Below, piece after piece: positions 32,360 through 49,388 of a stretch of 53,765 nucleotides of DNA. A program made the position numbers and the translations under genes. Below the pieces are notes generated by a model. That model ran no database searches and was not told the DNA's origin. It was given only the letters and a program-made list of their open reading frames with translations. The DNA lies in NCBI GenBank assembly GCA_964367655.1, contig CAYIYJ010000001.1:1-53765 (forward strand). The letters run 5' to 3'. Within the stretch, counting starts at the first letter, position 1. Every line of letters starts with the position of its first letter. The stretch comes from an uncultured Candidatus Saccharibacteria bacterium (GTDB lineage Bacteria > Patescibacteriota > Minisyncoccia > Phycocordibacterales > CAIZLB01).

Positions 32360-32758
32360 ATGAATATAAACTACAAAATTACAACATGGGTACTATTAGG
32401 TATAATCCTTGCAACACTTTGTTGGAGCTGGGGTTCAATGCATGGACGTGGACATATGAGATATGATCACGGTATGCACATGAAGGGTAAGATGATGCAT
32501 CAGATGAATCCAGATCAATCTATGGGATCCATGATGATGGATATGACAGCACGGATGAAAGGAAAAACAGGAGATGATCTTGATAAAATATTCCTTGAAG
32601 ACATGGTTGTTCATCATCAAGGAGCAGTTGATATGGCAGTTGAATTACAGAAAGGAACAAAACGGCCTGAACTGCAGAAGATGGCAAAAGACATCATCGA
32701 TGCACAAACAAAAGAGATTGAGATGATGAAGGGTTGGAAGAGTGTTTGGTTTAAGTAA
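32360..32758 (+). CDS. DUF305-family protein with a Met/His-rich segment
   Basis: Signal/TM N-terminus, the stretch HGRGHMRYDHGMHMKGKMMHQMNPDQSMGSMMMDM, then the DUF305 motif HHQGAVDMA. Confidence 0.75.
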   Translation: MNINYKITTWVLLGIILATLCWSWGSMHGRGHMRYDHGMHMKGKMMHQMNPDQSMGSMMMDMTARMKGKTGDDLDKIFLEDMVVHHQGAVDMAVELQKGTKRPELQKMAKDIIDAQTKEIEMMKGWKSVWFK

Positions 32759-35828: not shown

Positions 35829-35874
35829 ATTTTATAAGTATAAATTCTATTTTGATATGTTTTCATACCATGAA

Positions 35875-36447
35875 TTATAGCATTTTTTCAGAACTATCTA
35901 TTGCAGAATTTACAAAATCAATCCAAACTTTCTCGGTATCTATAGGTGCATAGAATATATATTCAGCTACCCCCTTATAATCAACATGTAACCTCCCTCC
36001 TCCACACAGTCCCGTCCCCTCATCACAAGAATATAAAGAATAGTATCCGGTTATACCGTCATGCAATGATACAGGGATCATACGGTCATCAAACTCTATC
36101 TTTCCGTTAGAATTTCCAACCTCAATAGCAGCCAACTCACAATGTGTTCCACCAGTCTCATCACATCCCTCTTCGTCACTAAATGTTATTTTGTAACCAC
36201 CACTATTAAAAGAAAGTGTCCCGTAGACAGGATATTCCTTTTCATTTGGAAATGAAAGCATTGGTACTTTCAAAGGGACTATCTTCGGAATCTTCGAATT
36301 TGGAAACGTATCTTCTATCTTATTCAACAACTCACTGCGATTGTTAACCGTTGCCATAAAGGTTGAAGAGGTGCTCTGTGCGGGTTTGTGTTGGGAAACG
36401 GCATAAAATACCAGGAGTAGTGTGATTAGTGAGAGGGTGATTTTCAT
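35875..36447 (-). CDS. secreted orphan protein
   Basis: I prefer the start MKITLSLITLLLVFYA (36447), 8 nt after TGaTACAAT. It has a signal peptide. Confidence 0.6.
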   Translation of the reverse strand: MKITLSLITLLLVFYAVSQHKPAQSTSSTFMATVNNRSELLNKIEDTFPNSKIPKIVPLKVPMLSFPNEKEYPVYGTLSFNSGGYKITFSDEEGCDETGGTHCELAAIEVGNSNGKIEFDDRMIPVSLHDGITGYYSLYSCDEGTGLCGGGRLHVDYKGVAEYIFYAPIDTEKVWIDFVNSAIDSSEKML

Positions 36448-36505
36448 ATTATTTGATTGTATCAAATTTGTAATACTCTTTATTTCTTCTTCAATTTGGT
36501 TTTAT

Positions 36506-36525
36506 GTCCCACTCGGGTGGGTCAA
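36506..36525 (-). repeat. junction repeat, degenerate copy (stop-proximal block only)
   Basis: GTCCCACTCGGGTGGGTCAA resembles the TCGACCCCACTCGGGC / TTGACCCCACTCGTGCGGGTCAA blocks of the full copies. It lies directly after the stop codon at 36529. Confidence 0.45.
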
Positions 36526-36528
36526 TAT

Positions 36529-37134
36529 TTACTGCGTAACAGTAAAACCAACCCTATTACTCTGGACCTGATTTTTAGAGCCGTCTTCACTCATCGATAT
36601 ATATATCTCATATGTTCCAGGCACAACTTTAGCAGGATACGGATCACAACCGACGGACATATTCACAGGGATACTCTCTCTCACACTCGTACAGCCACTA
36701 TTGATTATGTCTGGGACAACATACATAATCTGCTTTGAACCTTCAGGTATGTCATATATATAACTTGCAGTGTCAGATGTATTTTTAAAATTAACACGAA
36801 CCTTATTGGATGCATTCATGTGTGGTACAGTTGCGGACAGATAGATAACAATATTTGCACCAGCAGGACCAGAAGTTTTACTAAGAGAGATCACTGGAAA
36901 CCCTTTATTCGTAGTTGCTGAAGATCTAATAATGGTTTTTTTCGTAGAAGTAGAGACATTTTGTGACTGAAGTTTTTGTCCTTCTAATCGTGCAGGTGTC
37001 GATGTAGCAAACCACTGATAAGTAAGGCTGTCTGAAGTTGTACCTGTATTACCATAATATAGAGAAATGCCTATAACGATAGCAATCACAATAACGGCCA
37101 CGAGACCAGTAAAACCTTTTTGATATGTTTTCAT
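36529..37134 (-). CDS. secreted/anchored orphan protein with a pilin-like leader lacking Glu5
   Basis: I prefer the start MKTYQKGFTGLVAVIVIAIVIG (37134), 6 nt after TGcTACAAT. Confidence 0.6.
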   Translation of the reverse strand: MKTYQKGFTGLVAVIVIAIVIGISLYYGNTGTTSDSLTYQWFATSTPARLEGQKLQSQNVSTSTKKTIIRSSATTNKGFPVISLSKTSGPAGANIVIYLSATVPHMNASNKVRVNFKNTSDTASYIYDIPEGSKQIMYVVPDIINSGCTSVRESIPVNMSVGCDPYPAKVVPGTYEIYISMSEDGSKNQVQSNRVGFTVTQ

Positions 37135-37142
37135 ACATAAAT

Positions 37143-37178
37143 TGTAGCACTGATAGCCTCTCTCAAACAGTTGACCCC
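37143..37178 (-). repeat. junction repeat, short promoter-proximal copy
   Basis: The + strand reads tgtagcactgatagcctctctc, matching tgtagcattgataacccctctcg at 38047-38069. Confidence 0.5.
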
Positions 37179-37179
37179 T

Positions 37180-37214
37180 AAAAAATATAAGACCAGTCAT
37201 TTGCATGACTGGTC
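37180..37214 (-). terminator. intrinsic terminator
   Basis: Perfect 10-bp stem GACCAGTCAT-ttgc-ATGACTGGTC, followed on the minus strand by TTATATTTTTT. Confidence 0.75.
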
Positions 37215-37219
37215 ATTGT

Positions 37220-37675
37220 TTAATCCCCACTACCATTCTTGGTCACGAATGGAGGTTTCATTGCAGGCGAATATGCTTTATCCAGATAGCTGGCATAGGT
37301 TTTGTAACCTTCCGGCCTTTTTTCGAAAGAGGTATTTTTGCCTACAAAATCATGTTCTCCAAGAAATGCAAGCAGCACCTGTATGCCGTCAGATTGATCA
37401 CCGTCAGGGAGATGACAGATCACAGACAAGCACTCAGCATAACCATTCGCACCGTTGTCACACAGAGTATACAACTCTACTCGTTCATCGTAACCTGCAT
37501 GAAATAAGTTCCACTCAGCAGTCTCTTCGTGCAAATCACCATCTCCACCTCCGGAGACATGAAATTCAGTCGAAGTAAGTCTGAAGAATTCTTTCATCAG
37601 CTTGCGGACCTTGTCTGCAAATCCTTTTTTTTCCTCACCAACACGTAAATAATATCGAGTTTCTTTCTGACTCAT
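37220..37675 (-). CDS. orphan cytoplasmic protein
   Basis: I prefer the start MSQKETRYYL (37675), which is preceded by AAGGAG at 6 nt. It is one of the few Shine-Dalgarno-led genes in the island. Confidence 0.6.
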   Translation of the reverse strand: MSQKETRYYLRVGEEKKGFADKVRKLMKEFFRLTSTEFHVSGGGDGDLHEETAEWNLFHAGYDERVELYTLCDNGANGYAECLSVICHLPDGDQSDGIQVLLAFLGEHDFVGKNTSFEKRPEGYKTYASYLDKAYSPAMKPPFVTKNGSGD

Positions 37676-37822
37676 AAGATTCTCCTTGTCTTTTGGGTAT
37701 TTAATGTTCAATACACATATCACCAGTAGGTCACCCTACTTAAAAAGCAATATAGGCAAAAAGCAGTATGGCATGGTGTATATAATAAGTCAATTTAAGT
37801 TAATTGGTGTCTTTCCACCCTT

Positions 37823-38038
37823 CTATTTCCCTGAGACAGCTTTTTTAATTCCGTAAACCACAGCCCATATGATAGCAAGAGCGACACCTATAAAAATAAT
37901 AAAAGGTAAGACAAGCATAAAGCTTTCCCATGAATGCGAAGAGGTTGTTACTTCTTCTTTTTTAGAAACTATAGTTCCTAGTATTACTAAAAAAGCTATT
38001 ATACCCACCATTGTATACAAAAGACTCTTTCTTATCAT
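37823..38038 (-). CDS. small 2-TM membrane protein
   Basis: 71 aa with two hydrophobic helices. The promoter-to-ATG segment is identical to that of the gene starting at 37134. Confidence 0.55.
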   Translation of the reverse strand: MIRKSLLYTMVGIIAFLVILGTIVSKKEEVTTSSHSWESFMLVLPFIIFIGVALAIIWAVVYGIKKAVSGK

Positions 38039-38060
38039 ACATAAATTGTAGCATTGATAA

Positions 38061-38090
38061 CCCCTCTCGTGCTAGCTCTAATTGGCGGGC
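38061..38090 (-). repeat. junction repeat, short copy
   Basis: The + strand reads CCCCTCTCGTGCTAGCTCTAATTGGCGGGC, near-identical over the 23-nt CTCGTGCTAGCTCTAATTGGCGGG core to 45911-45933 and similar to 44054-44076. Confidence 0.7.
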
Positions 38091-38118
38091 ATCACTTACC
38101 TATTTAATCCTTTCACCA

Positions 38119-39300
38119 TTAAAACAATCCAACAAACTGATCTCCATATACATGCTTCAGAGAAGCATACAATTCCTTTGCTGTACAACCTATACCCTCA
38201 ATAACAACCTGTCCGTAATCAGGATGATTAACCACATGCCTAGATTCTATTAATTGAGGATGTTGTGCACCTGCATCTAAAAATAATGGATAGTAGGTAC
38301 TTAGAATATCATCTTCTTCAAGTTGAAGCCTAGCACAGTATAGTTCACCTGCATAAGGATGATGATCTTGCTGTCGACTATCTTTATTTACCGTCCAAAA
38401 GAGGGTACCGTCCGGATCAAGTGGATCAAAATCTTCACTATCTATTATCAATCTAAATTTAGTACCACTGTCAATTTTATCAAGAACTAAAGAAAGTTTC
38501 TCCATATCAGATCTTTCAACCTGTTCAGAATACGGCTGAGGAGAACCTAAAATATTTGTAGACCAGTAGTGAACATTTTTAAGACTATCGATGTTAATCT
38601 TTCCAATATCAAGCTTAGAATGTGGTAGCTGATCCATATCTCCTAATAACCACCCCTGCTGTATCTCAGTTATTTGATTCTCCCTTAGCTCCCTAATATT
38701 TCCCCCTATTCTTTCTCCTGGAATCACTCTTTTTTCAAATTGAAGCCCTCCAATATCTGCCCATGGATCTTTTTTAACTCGATGTAATTCCATAGACATA
38801 ACCCCTGACTCTAAACCTTCTTGTTGCGGAATAACATCAAATATTTCCGTATCCTCAACAGACAGCTTCTCAGCTACAAAAGTACACCACTCTGACAAAT
38901 CTACACCTACAGGAATTGAAGAAAAAAAATCATATAAATCATGATATCCTGTTTTACCCAAACCAGAACTTCTCTCTTCAATCTCATCGAATATTTTACC
39001 CAACAAAGTACCATGTAGTCTTGTGGGAACATAATCAGTAAAACACATAGTCTTGATACTTTCTGCCAAAGCATCTAACGCTCTTCCTTTCTCCCTCTCA
39101 TTTAAAAAAAGAATCTGCCGCCGATCTGTATTTTCACTAGTACTAATTTTATGAATTCTAGCTTCTCGATACCGTTGATATTCAGAGCCGACACCGAGAG
39201 AAAAGATCTGTTTATGTAAATTTATTCTTTGCGTATGGTCAGATTCTGATCTTAGACGCTTAGCAAGATCATTTCGAAACTCCTGATGCATATTTTCCAT
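38119..39300 (-). CDS. orphan protein, 393 aa
   Basis: Long ORF with TGgTATAAT 7 nt upstream of the ATG. No family recognised. Confidence 0.65.
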   Translation of the reverse strand: MENMHQEFRNDLAKRLRSESDHTQRINLHKQIFSLGVGSEYQRYREARIHKISTSENTDRRQILFLNEREKGRALDALAESIKTMCFTDYVPTRLHGTLLGKIFDEIEERSSGLGKTGYHDLYDFFSSIPVGVDLSEWCTFVAEKLSVEDTEIFDVIPQQEGLESGVMSMELHRVKKDPWADIGGLQFEKRVIPGERIGGNIRELRENQITEIQQGWLLGDMDQLPHSKLDIGKINIDSLKNVHYWSTNILGSPQPYSEQVERSDMEKLSLVLDKIDSGTKFRLIIDSEDFDPLDPDGTLFWTVNKDSRQQDHHPYAGELYCARLQLEEDDILSTYYPLFLDAGAQHPQLIESRHVVNHPDYGQVVIEGIGCTAKELYASLKHVYGDQFVGLF

Positions 39301-39396
39301 ATTTAATATTATACCACTAAAAGAGATACCTGTAGTACCTTGACTGTATCAGCAGGTACTCAATTAAGCCACTGTCTGCCTCTCCTCCTGTAAAAC

Positions 39397-40173
39397 TCAT
39401 ACTTTATTTAGCTGTTCAACCAATTGATGTAATCGATTTATTAATTCATTTTGGAAAGATGCTACCTTGTCTTCTCCTGGAGCTTGCATAATAACTTCAG
39501 GCTCCTCCTGGCTAGCTTGCCGTATAGATATAACAATATTATTCAGAAATCGATACCCTTCTGCGCCATCAAAGGCACTCATTAATTCATTTATTTTTAC
39601 ACGTAGCATGCTTATCGCAGCTTCATCAAAACCCTTTAATTGCTTGGCATTGTTAGCAAGACGATACTCGCTTAATGGCTCCCAGAAACCTCCAAACCAA
39701 TCAAAATCAAAAAACACATGCCCGTTTTCCCCTACCCTAATATTGTGAAGAGGATCCTCATCGTTTGGCAAAAGATGGTCCGTATCGTGAAAAACATTTG
39801 TCAGTATGAATATATCTGTCTTTAGCGGCATCAAAAGATCCGAGCGTATGTCCCTAACGCTTTCATTTTTTATAGATAGCACATTTGAATAAAACCATTT
39901 TTGTCCACCTGTATTTTCAACACAGACAACATCCGACACTGGAATGATGCCCTTGAGCATTCTCGTCAGAAGCATTTGATCCGCGCCACGTTCGAAGCCC
40001 TCTCCGCCATATAATTTTCGGCCAGTTGAATCCTCGACCATATCGAGAGGGATCCGACTTTCCAGTGCCCGCGGACCAGAATCACCTTTTACCGTCAGCT
40101 CTTCGACTCGAATAATTGAAGACAGACCGTCTTCTTGTTCTGTATTTTTTGATTTCGGAAATTCTTGAGACAT
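39397..40173 (-). CDS. orphan protein with a possible kinase-like catalytic signature
   Basis: 258 aa. TDHLLPN (DxxxxN) is followed 18 residues later by DFD, reminiscent of the kinase/APH catalytic and Mg loops. This is a weak motif-level call only. TGgTACAAT lies 7 nt upstream of the ATG. Confidence 0.6.
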   Translation of the reverse strand: MSQEFPKSKNTEQEDGLSSIIRVEELTVKGDSGPRALESRIPLDMVEDSTGRKLYGGEGFERGADQMLLTRMLKGIIPVSDVVCVENTGGQKWFYSNVLSIKNESVRDIRSDLLMPLKTDIFILTNVFHDTDHLLPNDEDPLHNIRVGENGHVFFDFDWFGGFWEPLSEYRLANNAKQLKGFDEAAISMLRVKINELMSAFDGAEGYRFLNNIVISIRQASQEEPEVIMQAPGEDKVASFQNELINRLHQLVEQLNKV

Positions 40174-40196
40174 ATCGAATATTGTACCAGACTTAT

Positions 40197-40250
40197 CTCT
40201 CGAGTGCCCGAATGGGATACCTCACTCGGGCAGATCAAAAAGTGACAAAC
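40197..40250 (-). repeat. junction repeat, variant copy
   Basis: It shares tcaaaaagtgacaaa with 46166-46180, cactcgggc with the other copies, and gaatgggatacc with 45191-45202. Confidence 0.55.
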
Positions 40251-42563
40251 TTACAACTGACGAGTAAAGGGATTATCAGTCATAGGTTTATATTCGTCAA
40301 CCAGAGGATCTCCTTTATACCTTACCTGATTAAAGCCAACAGCCACACAGTCATCACCGCCAGTATGACCATCAACTAACACGCCGTCTACCATTCTCAA
40401 ATATTTTAACCCTGACTCACCCTGAGTTGGATCTTCCACAATAAACATTGTACCTTCATATGTAGACATATCGTTCTTCAGCAATGAATCAACCTCATCC
40501 TTTTCAAGAGGGCGGAGTCCTAATTTGTTAAGGTTAGACAAAACCTCCTCACTAGAGAACTCTTGATATTCTTCATAATCCCCTGCAATATTTTGAGCCT
40601 CTGTGATACAAAATGGCAAGGTGAGAACTTCACAAGTTTTACCACCTGTAGTAAATGTCCTGGATCTAATTACAGATTGTATCGCTGTTCTCAAACCACA
40701 GTCAAAAAACTTAATTGATGCATTCGACGGAAAAGTACTAAAATAATTCCTACGGAACTTTGAGAATTCAGTCTTAAGGACAGGGCCTCTATGCAGTAGT
40801 GTTTTAGTGTCAGGACTCAAAGGATCTAAACCACAAAAAGAAACTGAATTTCTTTCTGCTTCATCTAATTTTACCCCCCTGAAGATTTCAGGTAAAACCA
40901 ATCGTGATGCTGTAGATAAATTTTGCAGGTCAAGTATGCCGTGAATTTTTTTTGGCAAAACAATATCAGATTCGTCTTCGGTACAAATTGACAGCCCCCC
41001 AACCTCCTCTGACAAAGTAAGATCTTTTACAGATTCAACTTCTAAAATTAACATCCTGCCCACTTTTTGTGGAAGTACAATACTTTCCAAAGAACCTTTT
41101 TTATGCAAATGGACATCACTTTTCGCATATTTCGGCAAGACTGGCCTACTATCAAAATCCCAGTTATCCTCGTCCAAATCGACAGTAGTGTAGATGACGT
41201 CTTTCGCAATCAAATCTTCAGATGAAAGGGCAATTTGATTTTGATCACAGTCCAAAGCTTTTGATAATTCTGTTCTCAGACCAAGTCTGACCGCCAATAT
41301 TTCTGATATTCGCGGATCAGTCTCATATCCAAAACCTTGAATTGGCCCATTGAGTTCAAACAAAAACTCAACTTCATCGAAACTTAATTTCGAATCACAT
41401 ACGATCTTTTCTTTGGTATTTTTATCAACCTTAAAACATTTTTCATAAATCGCCGTCAACATTTTCATATCACGATCAGCTTTCTCATATTGTTCCGCAC
41501 CATCCAGTTTAGAGTAATGTTCTTTCGCGATATCAATCAGCACAGGCTCAAGAGCTTGACCGGGATCAACCCCTCGTATCTCAGCAACGTTTTGCACATT
41601 ATTATAATTTTCCATTCTCACTGCAATTCGAGGTTCAGTTGGAATACCAGCCTTGTTTTTTGTATAGAACACATGAAAATCACCAGAAGCAAGTTGTCCT
41701 TCTGCTGATCCTGAAGCTGTACACCAACCCGTACCCTTACCCTTAAGCCCTCTTTCTAGTTCTCTATAATCAGAACCTTGAGGATATATCACCCATTCTC
41801 CCTCTAGTGATTCACGATCAAGATTTCCAGCACATTCAACTTGAGCAAAGGCATACAGTTTGGAAAAGTCTTTTGAGGCAAGTCTTTTATCAAGCTCTTT
41901 TTCTAATTCATCCTTTCTCTCAGTATTCAATTCTAAACCCTCTTTCTCGAGTTCACCTATCAGCGCTCTGAATACGAACCTTAAAGATTCTGCATTTGCC
42001 TCTGGAAAAGGAGCAACTGTCTTTTCTGTTCTTGTAGAATAGCTCATGCTACCACGATTGAATTGACCCATCTTTTTAAGCGACCGGACAACGTAATATT
42101 TAAACCATATCGGATAACCTTCTCCTTCTTTGAGATATGTAATCCACGATTGCAAAGATCTTTTCTGGATTTGAGCCTTCTCAATTATTGATTCCTTGTA
42201 TCGTTTAAAAATTTCTTCACCATCTAACCTTTTGATATCACCACCTCTACCCTGATCGATAGCTATTTTCTTTTCAGATTCATATAAGTCTTGCGCAAGT
42301 GATCTCACAAGATCTTCATCTTGAACATTCAATATATAATCATCGGTGATTGATTCCTCAATCATCTTTACGACAGACGGTCGTTTTTTCATGATCCTAT
42401 CAAGACCTCTGAGATACCGATCGATAGTTGCATGCTTAGATTTTTTTTGAGGCAAATGCTCTTTTTTGGTTGTATATTCAGCCAAAGTCTGAGCTTCTTC
42501 AGATGTATGTATATCTTGGAATTTTTGTCCAAGGAATTCTGTGCCGTTGAAGGATTCTTTCAT
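40251..42563 (-). CDS. large orphan protein, 770 aa
   Basis: Long uninterrupted ORF with a KGTGWCTASGSAEGQLASGDFHVFYT segment. No family assigned confidently. TGaTACAAT lies 9 nt upstream of the ATG. Confidence 0.7.
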   Translation of the reverse strand: MKESFNGTEFLGQKFQDIHTSEEAQTLAEYTTKKEHLPQKKSKHATIDRYLRGLDRIMKKRPSVVKMIEESITDDYILNVQDEDLVRSLAQDLYESEKKIAIDQGRGGDIKRLDGEEIFKRYKESIIEKAQIQKRSLQSWITYLKEGEGYPIWFKYYVVRSLKKMGQFNRGSMSYSTRTEKTVAPFPEANAESLRFVFRALIGELEKEGLELNTERKDELEKELDKRLASKDFSKLYAFAQVECAGNLDRESLEGEWVIYPQGSDYRELERGLKGKGTGWCTASGSAEGQLASGDFHVFYTKNKAGIPTEPRIAVRMENYNNVQNVAEIRGVDPGQALEPVLIDIAKEHYSKLDGAEQYEKADRDMKMLTAIYEKCFKVDKNTKEKIVCDSKLSFDEVEFLFELNGPIQGFGYETDPRISEILAVRLGLRTELSKALDCDQNQIALSSEDLIAKDVIYTTVDLDEDNWDFDSRPVLPKYAKSDVHLHKKGSLESIVLPQKVGRMLILEVESVKDLTLSEEVGGLSICTEDESDIVLPKKIHGILDLQNLSTASRLVLPEIFRGVKLDEAERNSVSFCGLDPLSPDTKTLLHRGPVLKTEFSKFRRNYFSTFPSNASIKFFDCGLRTAIQSVIRSRTFTTGGKTCEVLTLPFCITEAQNIAGDYEEYQEFSSEEVLSNLNKLGLRPLEKDEVDSLLKNDMSTYEGTMFIVEDPTQGESGLKYLRMVDGVLVDGHTGGDDCVAVGFNQVRYKGDPLVDEYKPMTDNPFTRQL

Positions 42564-42587
42564 AATATGGGTATTGTATCAAATTAA

Positions 42588-42718
42588 GCTCTCATACGCT
42601 CTTGTTGGCGGGCCGACTCGTGCTAGAACCGTGGGCGGTTAAGGTCTGTAATGTCCGTTGGGGATATTGTAACATAGCTGACTCGACCCCAATCGGGCGT
42701 GTCAAAAAGTGATACAGG
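42588..42718 (-). repeat. junction repeat, full copy A
   Basis: + strand blocks: ttggcgggccgaCTCGTGCTAGaaccgtgggcggttaag ... gtccgtt ... tcgaccccaatcgggc ... gtcaaaaagtga. Confidence 0.8.
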
Positions 42719-42779
42719 TTGAGGTACTAAGAGTTATAGTTAAATGTCACTTTCTAAGAAACAAAACTGTCCTTTCCTA

Positions 42780-43397
42780 TTAGAACTTCACAGAGCCTTT
42801 AATCTTGTCCAATGCTTCCTGCGATATGCCGATTTTGGTAGCTGGTTCGAAGAATCCGACTACACGAACAGAAGGTACGATAATCATTTCTGCGCCAGTG
42901 TCATTCGAATAGTAGATTCCATTATACTCACTCAGCATCTTTAAGGTATAAGCCGAATTTTTCTCTGGGTTCGCACTGTCATATGCTTGCTGGTTGTCAT
43001 ATCGCACAAGAGAAAGAACTTCTTTGCCGTTGAAATATACAGTTAAACCTTTGGCATCCTTATGTGTTCTTGAAAAATTCGTTGTATATGTAAAATTATC
43101 CGGTACAGTTACAGAAAAGCTATTTACTGAAACAACCTTTGTCTGAGCTGATGGTGTTGTAGAGACCTTTGTAGGTGCGACAATTTGGTTTACAGAGGGG
43201 TCTGTCTGACCAGGAGTGAGAGTAGAAGAGGCTGAACTATTATTCTGTGTATCACGCGTATCACTCACAGTTTCAGAATTCACCATGACATTATCACCAT
43301 TTTGCTGCATATACCAGTATGTACCTCCGATTCCTAGCACAAGAGCAATGATGACTGCGACAATGATTCCAGTAAAACCATTTTGTTTATTTTTCAT
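42780..43397 (-). CDS. secreted/anchored orphan protein with a pilin-like leader lacking Glu5
   Basis: I prefer the start MKNKQNGFTGIIVAVIIALVLG (43397), 9 nt after TGaTATAAT. Confidence 0.6.
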   Translation of the reverse strand: MKNKQNGFTGIIVAVIIALVLGIGGTYWYMQQNGDNVMVNSETVSDTRDTQNNSSASSTLTPGQTDPSVNQIVAPTKVSTTPSAQTKVVSVNSFSVTVPDNFTYTTNFSRTHKDAKGLTVYFNGKEVLSLVRYDNQQAYDSANPEKNSAYTLKMLSEYNGIYYSNDTGAEMIIVPSVRVVGFFEPATKIGISQEALDKIKGSVKF

Positions 43398-43443
43398 AAT
43401 AATCAAATTATATCATTAAATTAAATATACCACTACTATATAA

Positions 43444-43484
43444 CCCCTCTCAGGTGCCCTTGTTGGCGGACCTACTCGTGCAGG
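43444..43484 (-). repeat. junction repeat, short copy
   Basis: The + strand reads cccctctcaggtgcccttgTTGGCGGAcctaCTCGTGCAGg, i.e. only the tRNA-3'-like block and the CTCGTGC block. Confidence 0.6.
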
Positions 43485-43488
43485 TAAA

Positions 43489-44040
43489 TTAACCTAAAAT
43501 ACTCTTCAGATCTAATTCCAGATTTTTGAATAGAATCTTGTTCTTGGCATGTCCTGTAGGGTTAACGGGTGACGGGTGAAAAATTGGAAAAACTTTATAT
43601 GTTTTATTTCCGAACTTAATATTCAAAATTTCTCCCATAACTAAGTTTTGATCAATTATTTTCGATAAAATACTTGTAGTCTGTACGCCTAAAATTATCA
43701 ATAATTCATATTCTTGATCTTTAATTTGTTCTAAAAAAATTGGCCAACATTTTTTACCACAAGATTCAAGCTCTGTTCGTTTTGAAACAAAACACTTTGA
43801 TAGTTCTGTAAATCCACTATTTTCGACAGAAAGACCAAAAGGTTCTAAAAGTTCATTTAACCTCTTTCCTGTTGGAAGTATTTTTCCATCAGGGCGATAA
43901 CAAGCCTTACCAGATAAAATCCAACCATTTGGTGCAGGAGACTCTCCAACAATTAACAACTTTTCTCCTTTTCCCACACCTAGCTGATGAAACTTTTCCA
44001 AAGGAAATTTTTTTATATCGTGACAAACATGATTTTTCAT
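43489..44040 (-). CDS. uracil-DNA glycosylase superfamily protein (family 4/5-like)
   Basis: 183 aa with LLIVGESPAPNGW (motif A-like GE.P.) and FHPSPVNP (motif B HPSP). Confidence 0.6.
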   Translation of the reverse strand: MKNHVCHDIKKFPLEKFHQLGVGKGEKLLIVGESPAPNGWILSGKACYRPDGKILPTGKRLNELLEPFGLSVENSGFTELSKCFVSKRTELESCGKKCWPIFLEQIKDQEYELLIILGVQTTSILSKIIDQNLVMGEILNIKFGNKTYKVFPIFHPSPVNPTGHAKNKILFKNLELDLKSILG

Positions 44041-44050
44041 ATATTTATTA

Positions 44051-44167
44051 TGTCTCGTACTAGCTCTAATTGGCGGGTCGATTCGGGCTGGAACCGTGGG
44101 TGGTTAAGCCCTGCTTAGTCCGTTTTGGATATTTCCATAATACCACATCGACCCCACTCGGGCAGCC
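44051..44167 (-). repeat. junction repeat, full copy B
   Basis: + strand blocks: ctcgtactagctctaaTTGGCGGGtcgattcgggctggaaccgtgggtggttaag ... gtccgtt ... tcgaccccactcgggc. Confidence 0.8.
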
Positions 44168-44179
44168 TAGATTAATGAT

Positions 44180-45127
44180 TTATAGACCGCCTTGCAATCC
44201 AATTTCCGGAAAAGAATTCGAGTCTATTTCCAAATCAGAAATATACTTATGCATGCACGAGAGCATAACTTTTTTTCTCCATTCCCATCGGGCCGAGTAC
44301 ACCTCATCCTTTTCATACGAGAGTGCCCATATCGATTTCAGGAAAATAAAATCATTTTTGAAATCAGAAATATTAGAAATATTGTATTTTTTACACAACA
44401 TGTCAATTTGATCAAAGTAGGACGTAAGTTGTTCATTTGAAAAATCCCATAATTTCATCGTTCCTGAGCCGTTTGGTTTAGGGTGATCCCAAAATTTTTG
44501 GAATACCACCCCTGTAACAATGTCATATCCAAATGGCATCATGACACGAGTTTCAAAATCAATAACTCCACCTTCCATTATATTAAAAGGGGTGAAATCT
44601 CCGTGACTAATCACCACAGGAAGTAAGTTTGTACGTTTTTTAAATTTTTCCATCGCCGTGTTTATAAGATCTTCGGGAAGATCCGGATTCTCGAGTAGCA
44701 CATTTCCTAGTTGAATCGCTTCGACCAACTGAATTGTTTCTAACTCGCGGTTTGAGTTATCAAGCTGAGCAACAGCAAATAACTTTACAGTCTCAGTGAA
44801 CTTTTTAAAAAGATCATCATTTATTTTTCCTATATCCCTGTAATCCGAGGCAAACATTTCACCAAACGTCTTGTTGCCAACCGATGTCTCAACAAAATAT
44901 GAAACTTCTCCATCTATTTCACCCCTCTCTACAGGTGCAGGGATCGGAAAACCAACATGGTACAATTTCTGTGCAAAATCTGCTTCATTTTGAATCTCAT
45001 CTTTTCCACCAGTTCTCAGAATGTACTTCGAATCTTGCGAGCGATAAACAGCGCCCGTCCTTACCAAAGCCCCTCTGTTCTTGATGAGGATCCATTCATC
45101 TAAATTGATCGGTTTTTGATATGACAT
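44180..45127 (-). CDS. aminoglycoside/choline-kinase-like phosphotransferase (APH family fold)
   Basis: ISHGDFTPFNIMEGGVIDFETRV matches the HGDxxxxN ... IDxE pattern. I prefer the start MSYQKP (45127) because the track extension runs into the repeat. Confidence 0.65.
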   Translation of the reverse strand: MSYQKPINLDEWILIKNRGALVRTGAVYRSQDSKYILRTGGKDEIQNEADFAQKLYHVGFPIPAPVERGEIDGEVSYFVETSVGNKTFGEMFASDYRDIGKINDDLFKKFTETVKLFAVAQLDNSNRELETIQLVEAIQLGNVLLENPDLPEDLINTAMEKFKKRTNLLPVVISHGDFTPFNIMEGGVIDFETRVMMPFGYDIVTGVVFQKFWDHPKPNGSGTMKLWDFSNEQLTSYFDQIDMLCKKYNISNISDFKNDFIFLKSIWALSYEKDEVYSARWEWRKKVMLSCMHKYISDLEIDSNSFPEIGLQGGL

Positions 45128-45185
45128 TGAATAATTAATTATATAGTAAATTAGATGGAAATAGCTATTCCTAAAGATAATATGC

Positions 45186-45323
45186 ACCTGAATGGGATAC
45201 CCCACAGAGGCGCCTTAATTGGCGGGCGCATTCGTGCTAGAACCGTGGGGAGCAGGGCCTGTAACGTCCGTTTCGAGCATTGTGGTATGTCGCGGTCGAC
45301 CCCACCCGTGCGGGTTGAAAATC
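45186..45323 (-). repeat. junction repeat, full copy C
   Basis: + strand blocks: cctgaatgggatacc ... ccttaaTTGGCGGGcgcaTTCGTGCTAGaaccgtgggg ... gtccgtt ... tcgaccccacccgtgcggg. Confidence 0.8.
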
Positions 45324-45325
45324 TA

Positions 45326-45877
45326 TTAAATTTGAGACTGTTGTTTTTCTCTAAATTCCTCTGACATCTTTGCCAAAGAATCAAAATCTGTGGCACCAAT
45401 ATCCCAAGAGTCCAACCCTTCTGCAATTATCACTCGCCCATCTTGTTCGATATTTGCATTTTCATTTCTTGCAGATGGATCGATCACTTTCCATTCAACC
45501 CCATTTTGTATTCCAACATACACATGTCCATTGATAGGACGTCCTCCATTCTTAAGCCACGTAAGATCAAGGGTTTCGATATATTTTGTTGGAATACTTA
45601 ATGCCCGGGCAAGTGCTATAAATACAAGTGCATCATCAGTACAACCTGTTACGTATCCATCGGTAATAATTTGAGATGCTGTCCTCTTTCGAAACACTTC
45701 ATTTTTATTTTCAGTTTGATATCTGAGAGTTCTTAAAAACTGAACCATCTGATGAATTTTCTGTTCGGTTGTTCCCTCGAAGGAACGAGCAATTTCAAGA
45801 ACTGCGGGAGTAATCACCGTCTGCTTCCCGGATTCTAAATATTTTTCAAAATTTTCTTGTTTTGGTGATTCTATCAT
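45326..45877 (-). CDS. transglutaminase-like cysteine protease-fold protein
   Basis: GYVTGCTDDALVFIALARALSIPTKYI (Cys), NGHVYVG (His) and KVIDPS (Asp) form a Cys-His-Asp arrangement. Confidence 0.65.
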   Translation of the reverse strand: MIESPKQENFEKYLESGKQTVITPAVLEIARSFEGTTEQKIHQMVQFLRTLRYQTENKNEVFRKRTASQIITDGYVTGCTDDALVFIALARALSIPTKYIETLDLTWLKNGGRPINGHVYVGIQNGVEWKVIDPSARNENANIEQDGRVIIAEGLDSWDIGATDFDSLAKMSEEFREKQQSQI

Positions 45878-45890
45878 TTAATTTTATGAT

Positions 45891-45926
45891 AGCACGAGAC
45901 GACCACCTCTCTCGTGCTAGCTCTAA
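45891..45926 (-). repeat. junction repeat, promoter-proximal part, with a 9-bp hairpin
   Basis: AGCACGAGA-cgaccacctc-TCTCGTGCT (45891-45918), then agctctaa leading into TTGGCGGG. Confidence 0.65.
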
Positions 45927-46077
45927 TTGGCGGGCCGACTCCGACTCGAAGCTTACAGCTTCAGTACACCTTTGCGGTTTGACTCGGACAAACGTCCTCG
46001 CAAACATCGCAAAGCTTTTCGAGTCGGGGAAAAGCTACGCTTTTCCTAACTCTAACATATTGTGGTAACTGCGGGCC
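45927..46077 (-). repeat. 151-bp ORF-less structured unit, copy 1
   Basis: Identical to 49172-49322 apart from 2 mismatches. It is bounded by GGCCCGC at both ends and contains TTCGAGTCGGAGTCGGCCCGCCAA (read on the minus strand). Confidence 0.85.
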
Positions 46078-46189
46078 TATTCGTGCTAGAACCGTGGGTG
46101 GTTAAGACCTGTATAGTCCGTTTCAAGGATTGTAGCATGTCTTAATTGACCCCACTCGTGCGGGTCAAAAAGTGACAAAAGTGACAGTT
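46078..46189 (-). repeat. junction repeat, full copy D (tRNA-like end interrupted by the 151-bp unit)
   Basis: + strand blocks: (gcgggcc)taTTCGTGCTAGaaccgtgggtggttaag ... gtccgtt ... ttgaccccactcgtgcgggtcaaaaagtgacaaaagtgac. Confidence 0.8.
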
Positions 46190-46618
46190 TTAGCTCTTTT
46201 CAAGAAGGCCCTTAATCCCCTTCAAAAACTTCTCACCGTCAGATCTTTTAACTTTGTTTCTCATATCCATCACTTTATCGCGATGACAGCGTCTCAATTC
46301 CTTACCACTACCACAATAACAAGGCCAGTGGCCTTTCACTTTTTTACAAGTGTGATATTCCAGAAATTTTATAATCCCATATAAGTCACTAATACCGAGT
46401 TCTTCCTGATAAAATTCGAGATTACCTTTTATGTTATGACTTCTGGCTTTCATAGTCGGGTTGCCACTTGTTGAATCATAATCAATTTGCCAAACAAAAA
46501 AGCTTTTCACACACGTCTCAATGAATTCAAGAATATTATTTTGAGATGAATAATGCTTATACTCTTCATCTTTCAAGAACAGGCACGCATTTCCGTTCGG
46601 GTAGAAGTGTCTACACAT
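46190..46618 (-). CDS. SEC-C-motif-containing protein
   Basis: 142 aa with HWPCYCGSGKELRRCH, a SEC-C-type metal-binding motif. An in-frame stop lies 9 nt upstream of the ATG. Confidence 0.6.
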   Translation of the reverse strand: MCRHFYPNGNACLFLKDEEYKHYSSQNNILEFIETCVKSFFVWQIDYDSTSGNPTMKARSHNIKGNLEFYQEELGISDLYGIIKFLEYHTCKKVKGHWPCYCGSGKELRRCHRDKVMDMRNKVKRSDGEKFLKGIKGLLEKS

Positions 46619-46895
46619 ACCACCCTATTTCAAACCGTGATCTGAAACATTCTCGATATGTAGATACTGGATTCGGCAGCAGGAAACCTTGATCTCCCGC
46701 ATATTCGCCTATTACCGGGTATCAGCATATCATAATTTATATAAGGGAACACTTATGCAAAGCAACAAAAATAGCCCAAGCACGACATGTGCAAGGGCTG
46801 GAAGTTTTTTAACGCTGTATCTTCCCGAGCGTTTGGCGATAAATCGCCGAAGAGCAAAGTTCAAAGTGACCAAGGAGGTCACAGTGGCAAAGCTC

Positions 46896-47597
46896 TTAGG
46901 GCTTACTTGCGAGAGACAACGCAGGACTGTAGGCACTACGGTCGTAGTCGAGCCAGCTGTAGCTCCAGCCCCACGAACCGCCACCCTGACGATCGAGGTA
47001 CAGGGCACCACGGCGGCCATCGGAGCGCCGCAGAGTGGTACCCAGCAGCTCGAACCAGGTGATACCGAGGGTGTCGAGCCAACGGAGCGTCTTTTGCCCC
47101 TCCTCCTCAAAAAGCGCCTGACCGATGCGAGCATCGGCTTGGATCGCTTTGGCGATGAGGCGGGCGCGCTTTACTTCGCTCGTGACGACTGTTTCCGACC
47201 CTTCGAGTCCTGTCAGGAAGTTTGCTTCTTTGGTCATGCCTCTGAAGTCCACTTCCTTGAGGGCAAGCGATCGCTTGTCCTGTTCCTCGTCACCCTTGAG
47301 ACCGTCACCTTTGGCAGGGCCTTTCCAGATCGTCCAGCCGCTACCCACGAACGTGGAAGGGTTGAATGTTGCGGGAAGGACCAACGGGCCGGTGGGCGGT
47401 TCGACGACAACTTTCACAGGCTCGGGAAGAGCGGGGACCTCATACCCATTGATATGGGCGGTGATCCAAGCGTTGAACTCGGCCGGCGGCAGATCGAGAA
47501 TGAGTTGGGTTTTGTCTTTGTCCCATCCGCTTCGTTCCCCAGCGTTGAGGAAAAGGGCTGCGAATTGGCGATGTTGTTTTTCAGTGGCTTGAGCCAT
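46896..47597 (-). CDS. GC-rich orphan protein, likely horizontally acquired
   Basis: 233 aa from MAQATEKQHRQF; the track ORF extends to 47693. The coding body has ~38 G+C per 60 nt by my counts at 46921-46980 and 47341-47400. The composition is plausible for a protein and is Trp-rich. The hairpin GTGACC-tcct-TGGTCAC follows the stop codon. The overlapping + strand ORF reads as Arg/Ala/Thr-rich low complexity. Confidence 0.55.
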   Translation of the reverse strand: MAQATEKQHRQFAALFLNAGERSGWDKDKTQLILDLPPAEFNAWITAHINGYEVPALPEPVKVVVEPPTGPLVLPATFNPSTFVGSGWTIWKGPAKGDGLKGDEEQDKRSLALKEVDFRGMTKEANFLTGLEGSETVVTSEVKRARLIAKAIQADARIGQALFEEEGQKTLRWLDTLGITWFELLGTTLRRSDGRRGALYLDRQGGGSWGWSYSWLDYDRSAYSPALSLASKP

Positions 47598-47914
47598 TGC
47601 GTAGTCTGGGTTACTAAATCCTTCAAAGTGGTACGTTCCAAGATAGGCTCTTGGAAAATGACGTATCACTCCGAATGTTTTTCGCCTCAGCATTTCACAT
47701 CTTATAAAATAAGATTCAAAATGCTGAAGCGAATTCGCAAGTTATTTCAAGGTACTTTATGCTATATATTATACACCACAAATGCCATATATGTCAATAT
47801 GCGGGTTTTGGGCTAAATTAGCCTGAAAAATAAAGGTATTTTGACGCGACCACACTACGTATTCCCTATTCTGCATAGCTATGCAGGGTTTACAGGTCTG
47901 TCATTAATTAATAT

Positions 47915-49024
47915 ATGCAACAGCTCGGTATAAATGCCCAGATACGGATGGCGGAGATAGTGCCACAAGCAAGAGTGAAGTACTGCCTCTATGCAAGAAA
48001 ATCTACAGAATCGGATGAGAAACAAGCTCTATCAATCGAATCGCAAGTAAAGGAAATGCTGCAGATTGCCGAACGAGATGGTTTGGAAATAATTGATATT
48101 CGAAGAGAATCCCACTCAGCCAAAGATTCAGGCCAACGTCCTGTATATAAAGAATTGTTGGAAGATATACGAAGACAAAGATTCAATGGAATTCTGACTT
48201 GGGCGCCAGACAGACTTTCCAGAAATGCGGGCGATCTTGGATCAGTCGTAGATTTGATGGATCAAGGATTATTATCTGAAATTAGAACCTATGGACAACA
48301 GTTCAGAAATTCACCTAATGAAAAGTTTCTACTAATGATTCTCTGCTCTCAGGCAAAATTAGAGAACGATAATAAGAGCATAAACGTGAAGCGTGGGATG
48401 AGAACTCGTTGCGAAATGGGATTGTGGCCAGGGAGAGCACCGACTGGATATCTGAGTGAAAAGAGGATAGATAGGAAATGTCAGGTATACATAGATCCAG
48501 AGCGAGGCCATATCATCAAGAGCATATTTGAAAAGGTTGCATATGAAAAGTGGACTGGCAGAAAAATAATGCACTGGCTCAAATTCGATCTGAATTTCAG
48601 GACGGCTTGCGGACATAAGCACATGAGTCTGGGTAATATCTACACCCTGCTCGAAAATCACTTCTATTATGGAGTATTTGAATACCCTTCAAAAAGCGGA
48701 AACTGGTACACAGGCAAACATGAACCCCTCATAACAAAAGAATTATTCGAACTAGTGCAATCTCAGATCAAAAGCCAAATCCTTCGCACTGGAGAGCCTA
48801 AAGAGTTCGCGTTCACCAAGCTCATGGCTTGCGGATTATGCGGATCAGGTATCTGTGCAGATGAGAAATTCAAGAAGCTGAAAGACGGATCGGTTAACAG
48901 GCATATCTACTACGCCTGTACCAGAGCAAGAAATCCGGACTGCAAGCGAGAGTACATAAATGAACCCGATTTGATAGAACAATTCATAAGACTCATGGAT
49001 GAGAGTTCATATAAATCATACTAA
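47915..49024 (+). CDS. large serine recombinase, probably C-terminally truncated
   Basis: Resolvase-type catalytic N-terminus (YARKSTESDEKQALSIESQ ... RLSRN), a recombinase domain, and a zinc ribbon (CGLCGSG ... YYACTRARNPDC). It stops ~25 aa after the last Cys. That is where large serine recombinases normally continue with a coiled coil, and all three frames are closed downstream. Confidence 0.8.
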   Translation: MQQLGINAQIRMAEIVPQARVKYCLYARKSTESDEKQALSIESQVKEMLQIAERDGLEIIDIRRESHSAKDSGQRPVYKELLEDIRRQRFNGILTWAPDRLSRNAGDLGSVVDLMDQGLLSEIRTYGQQFRNSPNEKFLLMILCSQAKLENDNKSINVKRGMRTRCEMGLWPGRAPTGYLSEKRIDRKCQVYIDPERGHIIKSIFEKVAYEKWTGRKIMHWLKFDLNFRTACGHKHMSLGNIYTLLENHFYYGVFEYPSKSGNWYTGKHEPLITKELFELVQSQIKSQILRTGEPKEFAFTKLMACGLCGSGICADEKFKKLKDGSVNRHIYYACTRARNPDCKREYINEPDLIEQFIRLMDESSYKSY

Positions 49025-49082
49025 CAGAAATACATAACCCTTAACAGCTTCCCTAACACAATAAAAAATGTGCGGTTTGAGC

Positions 49083-49171
49083 TCAGTAACCTTAGGTTCT
49101 AAGCCCGAGTGGGGTCGAAATTCAGACCTTCAAAATATCCTTAAAAACTAGCCTATTCGTGCTAGCACGAG
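49083..49171 (+). repeat. junction-repeat fragment in inverted orientation, with a 14-nt perfect palindrome
   Basis: GCCCGAGTGGGGTCGA (49103-49118) reads on the + strand here, whereas it reads on the minus strand in every other copy. It is followed by cctatTCGTGCTAGCACGAg, with the palindrome at 49157-49170. Confidence 0.7.
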
Positions 49172-49322
49172 TTGGCGGGCCCACTCCGACTCGAAGCTTA
49201 CAGCTTCAGTATACCTTTGCGGTTTGACTCGGACAAACGTCCTCGCAAACATCGCAAAGCTTTTCGAGTCGGGGAAAAGCTACGCTTTTCCTAACTCTAA
49301 CATATTGTGGTAACTGCGGGCC
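49172..49322 (-). repeat. 151-bp ORF-less structured unit, copy 2, abutting tRNA-Trp
   Basis: See copy 1. Its right-hand GCGGGCC (49316-49322) is the 3' acceptor end of the tRNA. Confidence 0.85.
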
Positions 49323-49388
49323 CACTCCGACTCGAACGGAGAATTGCGCGTTTGGAGTGCGATGTTTTACCATTGAAACTATAGGCCC
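49317..49388 (-). tRNA. tRNA-Trp(CCA), with a weak anticodon stem
   Basis: Manual fold, 72 nt: acceptor GGGCCTA/TGGGCCC, D arm GTTT-CAATGGTA-AAAC, anticodon loop CTCCAAA and T arm CTCCG-TTCGAGT-CGGAG. The anticodon stem TCGCA/CGCGC has only 3 Watson-Crick pairs. CCA is not encoded. Confidence 0.65.

Follow-up and report, generated by a model that had tools for sequence, protein, structure and literature searches.

What assembled the array of co-oriented genes that extends leftwards from a tRNA-Trp gene in an uncultured Candidatus Saccharibacteria bacterium? The stretch of DNA analysed here (the window; 53.8 kb, contig CAYIYJ010000001.1) contains tRNA-Trp(CCA) on the minus strand, with tRNA-Tyr and a small L33-like open reading frame (ORF) upstream of it and ClpB beyond both. 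The long ORFs from 33054 to 47693 are all on the minus strand, and a recombinase gene at 47915-49024 (+) is the sole exception in the island, in agreement with the original prediction made for this DNA. That prediction described an integron-like array of single-gene cassettes, inserted serially into the 3' end of tRNA-Trp and separated by a repeat displaced from it. We favour, with some confidence, the reading that the segment at ~36.5-49.3 kb is an accretion island at the tRNA-Trp 3' end, built by an element family of the Candidate Phyla Radiation (CPR) that encodes a large serine recombinase (LSR) of ~440 amino acids (aa).

Between genes of the island lie copies of a repeat, here called R, of about 120-190 nt. 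A profile built from R copies (nhmmer) was used to search the window and other contigs. In the window it recovered four full copies where the original prediction had placed them (E from 1e-34 to 4e-25) as well as weak matches at 40219-40252 and 49103-49176; in the remaining ~40 kb of the window, the best match had E = 0.15 and nothing was significant. The family is thus confined to 36.5-49.2 kb. Motif counts in the window agreed with the profile: TTGGCGGG occurred 6 times versus 0.5 expected (0/100 shuffles), on the plus strand only and in the island only, i.e. always in the tRNA orientation as had been claimed; GCCCGAGTGGGGTCGA occurred 5 times versus 0.1 expected, its copy at 49103-49118 being inverted; and AACGGAC..CAG occurred 4 times versus 0.06 expected. 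Read 5' to 3', R consists of GTCAC repeats, Box1 (GCnCGAGTGGGGTCGA), an extended -10 element in most copies, AACGGAC, CCACGGTT and Box2 (CTAGCnCGAGTnGGCC); Box1 and Box2 are direct repeats around an interior of ~75 nt.

Near-identical strain contigs were found by an exact-protein look-up of the transglutaminase-like ORF, while look-ups of the same kind with ClpB, the window recombinase and a 393-aa ORF gave no matches. Comparison contigs and loci are referred to by L-numbers. L001, at 97-99% identity, carries ClpB, tRNA-Tyr, L33, tRNA-Trp, a module X with a tRNA 3'-end duplicate (X-dup), the transglutaminase-like, APH and UDG ORFs and a 205-aa ORF. L001 represents the empty site: it lacks window positions 46078-49156 and contains one copy of a 181-nt sequence that in the window is present as a direct repeat (45912-46092 and 49157-49337, 94% identity) bracketing this 3.06-kb recombinase unit. 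The repeat had escaped the original prediction. The insertion absent from L001 terminates at the R copy R46.1. In the 3' part of repeat copy B, next to the transglutaminase-like gene, the single-nucleotide polymorphisms (SNPs) match the single L001 copy and are of the resident type, and the 3' part of copy A, next to a segment called Y, is of a different SNP type. Moreover, in L006 a different R variant (79% identity to R46.1) is joined to the same X-transglutaminase sequence (97% identity), and because of this third arrangement, at least three alleles of the tRNA-adjacent junction exist among close strains. Thus, the tRNA-Trp 3' end is an insertion hotspot with empty and occupied alleles among near-identical strains, as proposed.

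The recombinase unit consists of Y, the truncated recombinase gene, a G+C-rich ORF, an E2 fragment and R46.1. By Pfam, the recombinase contains Resolvase (PF00239), Recombinase (PF07508) and Zn_ribbon_recom (PF13408) domains and is of the serine type, as stated in the original prediction. Its best PDB match is SPbeta SprA/YokA (5e-11, over residues 26-410), and its nearest annotated relatives are phage integrases with at most 27% identity. It is 96% identical to the full-length relative P0001 over residues 1-362 and then meets a stop codon, so that ~75-80 C-terminal residues are gone, a truncation that the original prediction had not recorded; it is a remnant that probably drives nothing now. 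Similarly, the SEC-C-motif ORF is probably the N-truncated remnant of a defence-system 'E2' gene. The G+C-rich ORF at 46896-47693 had no Pfam or PADLOC match, shows no relation to its positional counterparts in L017 and L025, and is probably foreign cargo. No partner is conserved at this position, the divergent upstream neighbours of the recombinase being unrelated among the window, L017 and L025. Two related elements carry genes of the cyclic oligonucleotide-based antiphage signalling system (CBASS), with SMODS/SAVED in L017 and CD-NTase/Cap15 in L025.

The recombinase, R and Y recur together elsewhere. At least 8000 recombinase homologues were found at E < 1e-20, many with 75-96% identity, and these include proteins labelled Parcubacteria and Woesearchaeota. 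In the contexts of the closest homologues, the recombinase lies downstream of tRNA-Trp in the geometry of the window with 2.8-9 kb of cargo between. Y is 93-97% conserved directly after tRNA-Trp in L016 and L021, and after the tRNA and an X2-dup module in L017, L018 and L019. Contig JACCDM011075096.1 (L017 and L014) contains tRNA-Trp/X2-dup/CCAA-Y at one end and R/X2-dup/CCAA at the other (slashes mark junctions), with R about 14.9 kb from the tRNA, the ~220-nt X2-dup module on both flanks, and a recombinase of 95% identity; after Y, its cargo comprises metal-related genes, the recombinase, a faint terminase match, a methylase, an S24 peptidase, CBASS and a 314-aa gene. Parcubacteria LiPW_30 (L025) has a similar gene backbone, with R (E = 1.6e-23) at a distance of 7.3 kb on the upstream side of the recombinase. 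Among 57 IMG/VR loci with recombinase relatives (44-75% identity), 13 have a tRNA downstream on the opposite strand (Asp, Gln, Ser, Trp or Asn) whose 3' end faces the recombinase as in the window, and in 3 of these 13 the recombinase-tRNA gap is 120-150 nt. In L026, tRNA-Trp/CCAA is followed by a variant palindrome at the same nucleotide as in the tRNA/Y junctions of L016 and L021; in L008, AGTCGTGCTAGCACGAG comes after tRNA-Ser(gct); and in L011, the R located after tRNA-Gln has an end (..ACACCCAGC) similar to that of this tRNA. In total, Y or related arms adjoin tRNA 3' ends in six independent loci.

Because R and Y bound large recombinase elements in L017/L014 and L025, R and Y are very probably the two terminal attachment (att) arms of one CPR family of integrative elements with large serine recombinases. 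The segment next to the tRNA that had been described as a partly inverted R copy does contain an inverted Box1, but the segment as a whole is Y, the P' arm of the element. We also considered that R could be an ordinary intergenic repeat, such as a repetitive extragenic palindrome (REP) or a miniature inverted-repeat transposable element (MITE), or a promoter or terminator module unconnected with recombination at tRNAs. Most R copies do bear an extended -10 element and the units supply promoters; Box1 and Box2 flank the interior as a target duplication would; and the fetched stretches of L007, L010 and L014 contain no tRNA. This explanation is nevertheless highly improbable, since the ends of a strain-polymorphic insertion, and those of a ~15-kb recombinase element, coincide exactly with R and Y, the other ~40 kb of the window lack R and the GTDB representatives hardly contain it, the Y-type arms adjoin tRNA 3' ends at six loci, and R has no terminator-like site on the coding strand. 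A strict R pattern had one match in 185,579 GTDB species representatives (L007, a Candidatus Saccharibacteria metagenome-assembled genome), eight in JGI metagenome contigs and none in IMG/VR.

Three further features of the family were observed. Five IMG/VR contigs carry two recombinase-family copies each (3300014205_009253, 3300000970_000154, 3300042286_000458, 3300032737_000190 and 3300009873_002614), consistent with tandem elements. A LOOT RNA (Rfam RF03000, 78.5 bits) lies at L014 402-523, just upstream of the recombinase in the ~15-kb element. A second R in L008, at 12207-12327 (-) (with 9030-9060 (+)), has the opposite orientation, and its crossover end adjoins a reverse-complemented tRNA-like T-arm/acceptor fragment (CGTTCAAATCCCGCAAAGGTG), which hints at an inversion or an inverted insertion.

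The arms fit together as a quasi-palindrome. When R46.1 and Y are joined (CTAGCACGAATAGGCC/CGCCAACTCGTGCTAG), 13/16 positions are dyad-symmetric about GGCC/CGCC by hand count, and the array junctions have 7-12/16 such positions (10/16 at R44.1) versus ~4 by chance. Left halves of the junctions are the tRNA (or its duplicate) or R; right halves are x, the start of an X module, or P', i.e. CCAA plus an inverted half-site. All combinations were found, namely tRNA/x, tRNA/P' (including tRNA/Y), R/x and R/P', and from their sequences these would correspond to the expected attB, attL, attR and attP classes. The P' arm starts with CGCCAA, after which come the inverted half-site CTCGTGCTAG and additional boxes; it is Y (~95 nt, CCAA-CTCGTGCTAGCACGAATAGGC...TCGACCCCACTCGGGC) in large elements and a shorter type A or type B in small units. 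The conserved arms are at least 120 nt long. A box motif, GCnCGAG(T)GGGG, is present in Box1, Box2 and the P' arm and changes in parallel across lineages: it is GAGTGGGG with recombinases of 90-96% identity and GAGACGCG in L012, L015, L025 and L026 (~78-79%). This parallel change fits a protein recognition motif. The crossover centre would be at GGGCC/CG, between 49319 and 49318 of tRNA-Trp. For R46.1, we ruled out that crossover takes place in the T-loop and that the element then restores the 3' end of the tRNA, because the tRNA would have to be defective before integration.

Three forms of X-type module occur: the ~120-nt X of the window, X2 in L007, L009, L010, L014 and L017, and the 54-nt X3 in L009. 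They lie exactly at the crossover, between GCCCG and CCAA, at tRNA ends as well as at R ends, and they are present on both element flanks in the window and in L017/L014. X contains a hairpin (GGAAAAGC-GTA-GCTTTTCC), an inverted T-arm copy and TTGTCC-17-TATACT, a promoter-like site at 49236-49208. X and X2 both open with a hairpin right after GCCCG and close with an 18-20-nt copy of the tRNA-Trp 3' end that agrees with the local tRNA in its T-stem bases; at the end of X3, the copy (GCCCCG) is weaker. Most simply, and in accord with the SNP pattern, X-dup may be an internal, optional portion of the P' arm of the element.

Two structural observations on these modules are added. The 3' ~65 nt of X2 fold into a three-way junction (L007 2780-2843, L010, L014, L017; alignment A3, columns 99-162), and the central hairpin of X2 has 8-9 compensatory pairs between the L007/L010 and L014/L017 types, with no Rfam match. 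L039 15900-16310 (IMG/VR 3300000970_000154) contains tRNA-Ser(gct), an X-like module, a copy of the tRNA's own last 17 nt and then a second tRNA-Ser-like gene with anticodon ACT; the module shares with the window X AAAGGTATACTG, the hairpin and the direct plus inverted T-arm copies, while the target tRNA differs.

The original prediction held that the repeats are displaced tRNA 3' fragments and suggested a search for pseudo-tRNAs across the island. The tRNA-Trp-like end of R (..GGCCCG/CCAA) is present, but R is mostly element arm and only its last ~10-20 nt are tRNA-like. ARAGORN and the Rfam tRNA model (E <= 10) found no pseudo-tRNA in the island, only the real tRNA-Trp, and Rfam scans of R at the gathering and E <= 10 thresholds returned neither a tRNA nor another family. 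The global similarity of R to tRNA-Trp is above that of shuffles but modest (z = 2.8-4.7) and strongest in the last 10-20 nt. RNAalifold on 15 R copies gave -3.4 kcal/mol and 0 compensatory pairs; an acceptor-like helix of Box1 and Box2 proposed by hand was no better than shuffles (124/500). R is conserved at the level of primary sequence, it contains no intrinsic terminator on the coding strand, and canonical -35/-10 promoters are not enriched either. A pseudo-tRNA or structured RNA was ruled out on these grounds. The idea that R is nonetheless a small RNA or pseudo-tRNA, i.e. a tRNA-Trp-derived gene copy left by each insertion and possibly transcribed from an internal promoter, could draw on the R end (..GGCCCGCCA, as in tRNA-Trp with CCA), the z-scores above, the extended -10 element ~60 nt upstream of the R end and a strong terminator hairpin after GCCCG in L007, L010 and L014. 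Against the lack of any Rfam or ARAGORN match, of a consensus fold with compensatory pairs and of a Box1-Box2 helix better than shuffles, we regard it as extremely improbable.

Distal to the recombinase unit, the window contains at least five compact P'-promoter-ORF-R units. Each reads CCAA, a P' arm of 20-45 nt of type A (TTAGAGCTAGCACGAG..) or type B (box hairpin), an extended -10 element, one intact ORF, and R 0-60 nt after the stop codon. The cargo of the island as a whole is heterogeneous as predicted, with Pfam matches to UDG, APH, transglutaminase-core and SEC-C. TGnTAyAAT occurs 18 times in the window versus 6.6 expected, ten of these sites being on the minus strand in the island, where it lies 6-10 nt before the ATGs of genes (35.8-46.2 kb); this placement suggests leaderless mRNAs. 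R46.1 consists of GTCACTTTT twice, Box1, TGCTACAAT, AACGGAC and CCACGGTTCTAGCACGAATAGGCCCG, and at R42.6 AAAGTGAC and GTCAC motifs continue upstream to about 42760. The short and degenerate copies listed in the original prediction hold in position; their nature had to be corrected to Box fusions, P'-arm remnants and a lone Box1 (Table 1). The short R at 43444-43484 has lost the ~75-nt interior, and in that at 40197-40250 Box1 is fused to a hairpin-type P' arm (TGCCCGAGTGAGG-TAT-CCCATTCGGGCA). The remnant at 38060-38090 is 97% identical to the 45905-45935 copy and is followed by TGCTACAAT and a 71-aa ORF (37823-38038), which may be a real gene given the extended -10 element before it. The remnant at 37128-37178 lies immediately upstream of what is likely the true start codon (ATG at about 37133) of the ORF that ends at 36529 and has an extended -10 element at 37141-37149.

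In long R copies, the sequence preceding Box1 contains two or three tandem GTCACTTTT units and an inverted AAAGTGAC (window 42700-42760, L007 2440-2520, L009 4720-4790, L010, L012 and L025 2700-2735). This extension, which lengthens the arm to ~190 nt, may serve to bind an accessory protein.

Table 1. Features of the island, from tRNA-Trp leftwards; slashes mark junctions.
Feature	Position	Strand	Basis and description
tRNA-Trp(CCA)	49316-49388	-	ARAGORN; Rfam 48.2 bits; integration target
Direct repeat copy A	49157-49337	-	Repeat family D2, 181 nt at 94%; alignment A1; tRNA last 22 nt, X, tRNA 3'-end duplicate (49176-49195), CCAA (49172-49175), Y start
Y, P' arm of the recombinase element	49090-49175	-	CCAA, palindrome CTCGTGCTAGCACGA (49157-49171), inverted Box1 (49103-49118)
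Large serine recombinase, 3'-truncated	47915-49024	+	369 aa versus 425-450 aa in full-length relatives
Orphan ORF, 265 aa	46896-47693	-	~50% G+C versus ~38% in the genome; recombinase-unit cargo
SEC-C-motif ORF	46190-46618	-	PADLOC E2, E = 5e-31, profile positions 76-213 of 216; Pfam SEC-C
R46.1	46072-46194	-	nhmmer E = 1.3e-34; P arm, far end of recombinase unit
Direct repeat copy B	45912-46092	-	R end, X, tRNA 3'-end duplicate (45931-45950), CCAA (45927-45930); ends in start of type-A P' arm (TTAGAGCTAGCACGAG)
Transglutaminase-core-like ORF, 183 aa	45326-45877	-	Pfam; directly after tRNA-Trp-X in L001
R45.3 and CCAA	45219-45343 (profile match 45223-45343)	-	nhmmer E = 3.7e-25; then type-B hairpin P' arm
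APH-like kinase ORF, 315 aa	44180-45127	-	Pfam
R44.1 and CCAA	44070-44193 (profile match 44074-44193)	-	nhmmer E = 4.2e-25; then type-A P' arm
UDG-superfamily ORF, 183 aa	43489-44040	-	Pfam
Short R	43444-43484	-	Repeat family D3 and sequence; Box1-Box2 fused (TGCACGAGTAGGTCCG/CCAA), then P' arm
ORF, 205 aa	42780-43397	-	N-terminal hydrophobic segment
R42.6 and CCAA	42605-42729 (profile match 42609-42729)	-	nhmmer E = 7.8e-31
Orphan ORF, 770 aa	40251-42563	-	No Pfam or PADLOC match; absent from L001
Short R	40197-40250	-	Repeat family D6; nhmmer E = 0.0013; GTCACTTTTTGA and Box1
R remnant	38060-38090	-	Repeat family D5; GCCCG/CCAA and type-A P' arm TTAGAGCTAGCACGAGAGGGG
P'-arm/promoter remnant	37128-37178	-	Repeat family D8; 89% identity to 38032-38068
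Box1-only remnant (CCCACCCGAGTGGGAC)	36506-36525	-	Sequence; too short for significance alone; after stop of ORF 36529-37206
X, X2 and X3 modules	Window 49196-49316, 45951-46071; L007 2620-2843; L009 2211-2532; L010 10307-10524; L014 10975-11197; L017 13960-14182		

The same layout was found with other cargo. L009 contains six co-oriented R copies, at least three of them between single genes (DUF5071, B3_4 and low-molecular-weight phosphatase); in L014, a single 133-aa unit follows the large element; and L008 reads tRNA-Ser(gct)/P'-SLOG gene-R followed by further island DNA. The R copies of the window array are 62-79% identical to each other, and the nearest relatives of all four (81-85%) are in other genomes, that of R44.1 being an R of L009 (84%); because of this, we argue that they are not local duplicates but separate acquisitions. 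Homologues of the APH-like protein (39-46% identity) on two contigs are in a core topA-ASCH-APH-GIDA(trmFO-like)-phage-integrase(xerC-like) context without R, which is uninformative on mobility; no relatives of the transglutaminase-like and UDG proteins were found in IMG/VR, and the look-up of the 205-aa protein gave no new context.

Under the reading that we favour, the attachment site would be a long quasi-palindromic region with R as the P arm and Y or type A/B as the P' arm. The crossover would fall within GGCC/CG, which is also the end of the tRNA-Trp acceptor stem, and because of this identity every junction would end like a tRNA 3' end. Units entering next to the tRNA would displace older ones, leaving P/P' (attP-like) junctions between them. 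The newest unit would be 46078-49156, present in the window and absent from the sister strain; the older ones would be small P'-gene-R units that a full-length member of the recombinase family moved in trans, and some of their R copies would later have eroded via Box-to-Box deletions. Whether single-gene units were inserted one by one is, in our judgement, evenly balanced: of the serial single-unit insertion in the original prediction, repeat-associated breakpoints were found for the 3-kb unit, and for the cassettes insertion one at a time is inferred only.

Several observations weigh against this reading. L001 lacks window 39544-42780 (3.2 kb), with 44 nt of unrelated sequence instead (L001 8977-9020); the deletion removes R42.6, the 770-aa gene, the short R at 40.2 kb and most of a 258-aa gene, thereby truncating the latter, and its breakpoints are outside R. 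The expected repeat-associated breakpoints among sister genomes were found at the empty site of L001 and in the other R allele of L006 but not for this deletion within the array. Moreover, no single-cassette polymorphism was seen, the order transglutaminase-APH-UDG-205-aa ORF being the same in 6/6 near-identical contigs. Genes without R between them are neighbours in L009 (CYTH, kinase and NUDIX) and in the window (at 39.3 kb, 37.8 kb and 37.2 kb). From the truncated recombinase and the E2-like fragment, erosion does occur here. Finally, the arms (at least 120-190 nt) are far beyond typical LSR sites of ~50 bp, and the unit ends carry the 181-nt direct repeat, unlike canonical LSR elements; canonical LSRs recombine attP with attB at short sites (~40-50 bp) and leave no long direct repeats. 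Since this repeat flanks the unit, homologous recombination could explain its gain and loss.

Accordingly phrased as an explanation of its own, the 3-kb unit, and perhaps the cassettes, would be gained and lost only by homologous recombination across R/X repeats, e.g. after natural transformation, and the serine recombinase would have no current role. The 94% identity of the flanking repeats, the SNPs that place the exchange inside X and the truncation of the resident recombinase all fit this. It does not account, however, for arms that in many lineages, and with various tRNAs, adjoin the tRNA 3' end at a single exact position, and it leaves the dyad symmetry of the junctions unexplained. We consider it unlikely as the whole explanation but compatible with accretion by the LSR family, as a mechanism of recent turnover; in the reading that we favour, catalysis would be by an LSR rather than homologous recombination over the 181-nt repeat, and the exact crossover dinucleotide is likewise a putative one.

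The deletion in L001, the eroded state of the newest unit and the unbroken cassette order would also follow if the array were what is left of several 10-15 kb recombinase islands that integrated serially at tRNA-Trp and then lost nearly all DNA between their att arms by deletion, its genes being survivors that were never mobile units. Large elements with the same arms exist, tandem recombinase genes on single IMG/VR contigs indicate that such elements accrete, and the short R copies are Box-to-Box deletion products. By contrast, the units are compact with complete ORFs and no gene fragments between them, their P' arms are of type A/B, unlike the 95-nt Y of large elements, and L009, L014 and L008 show the P'-gene-R layout again, with unrelated cargo. 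We hold erosion from large islands alone to be rather improbable.

In layout, the accretion island proposed here would most resemble composite islands of the staphylococcal cassette chromosome (SCC/SCCmec; CcrAB/CcrC, rlmH/orfX) and also serial island accretion at tRNA genes; the likeness to SCC is one of description. Shared features are a large serine recombinase, the 3' end of one conserved gene as target, tandem units, repeated att sequences, heterogeneous cargo and units without a recombinase (cf. pseudo-SCC). The island differs in targeting a tRNA rather than rlmH, in an arm of 120-190 nt versus a repeat of ~18 bp, in units that can be single genes of 0.6-2.4 kb, in its CPR host, and in a recombinase that is distant from characterised LSRs (at most 27% identity to phage integrases). 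Islands of tyrosine integrases at tRNA or tmRNA genes likewise show serial accretion at one tRNA and tRNA 3'-end-like border repeats, but differ in the recombinase class and in that the repeated block here is mostly arm, with 10-20 nt tRNA-like.

Prophages and islands of serine integrases (phiC31, Bxb1, A118, SPbeta SprA) share the Resolvase, Recombinase and zinc ribbon domains and the dyad symmetry of the att core, and IMG/VR lists relatives on predicted viral contigs. By contrast, tRNA 3' ends are the consistent target of the family described here, a preference typical of tyrosine rather than serine integrases; the arms of this family are long with repeated boxes, and long X-dup direct repeats flank the elements of the window and L017/L014.

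The designation integron-like but not an integron is borne out. As in integrons, the units are co-oriented, mostly single-ORF and carry diverse small cargo, a site repeat follows the ORFs, and the newest unit is next to the anchor site. Here, however, the anchor is a tRNA 3' end, and no tyrosine recombinase is present: Pfam found no Phage_integrase domain on island ORFs of at least 120 aa, and the sole recombinase is of the serine type. Moreover, attC sites are structure-conserved hairpins whereas R is conserved in sequence without a conserved hairpin, and integrons use a common promoter (Pc) whereas here each unit has its own. Tentatively, the system may be a CPR serine-recombinase counterpart of the integron, in which a tRNA 3' end would dock single-gene circles, each with R plus P' and a leaderless promoter, that a conserved ~440-aa LSR, provided by resident islands or phages, inserts and excises in trans, and which would be shared across Saccharibacteria and perhaps other CPR lineages. 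If single-gene units are mobile, this would be a second, mechanistically independent route to integron-like gene capture, i.e. a platform with a serine recombinase, a sequence-defined site and per-cassette promoters that could explain how reduced genomes sample accessory genes. CPR bacteria (Patescibacteria) have tiny genomes in which few mobile elements have been described, and an LSR family tied to defined att arms and tRNA 3' ends provides a concrete way to recognise islands in them. The recombinase and its defined sites might also serve as tools, since LSRs are used for genome integration.

Finally, a DUF305 protein at window 32360-32758 (+) is 57% identical to a DUF305 cargo gene beside the L017 recombinase; by this likeness, the island, or an older island remnant, may reach below 33 kb.

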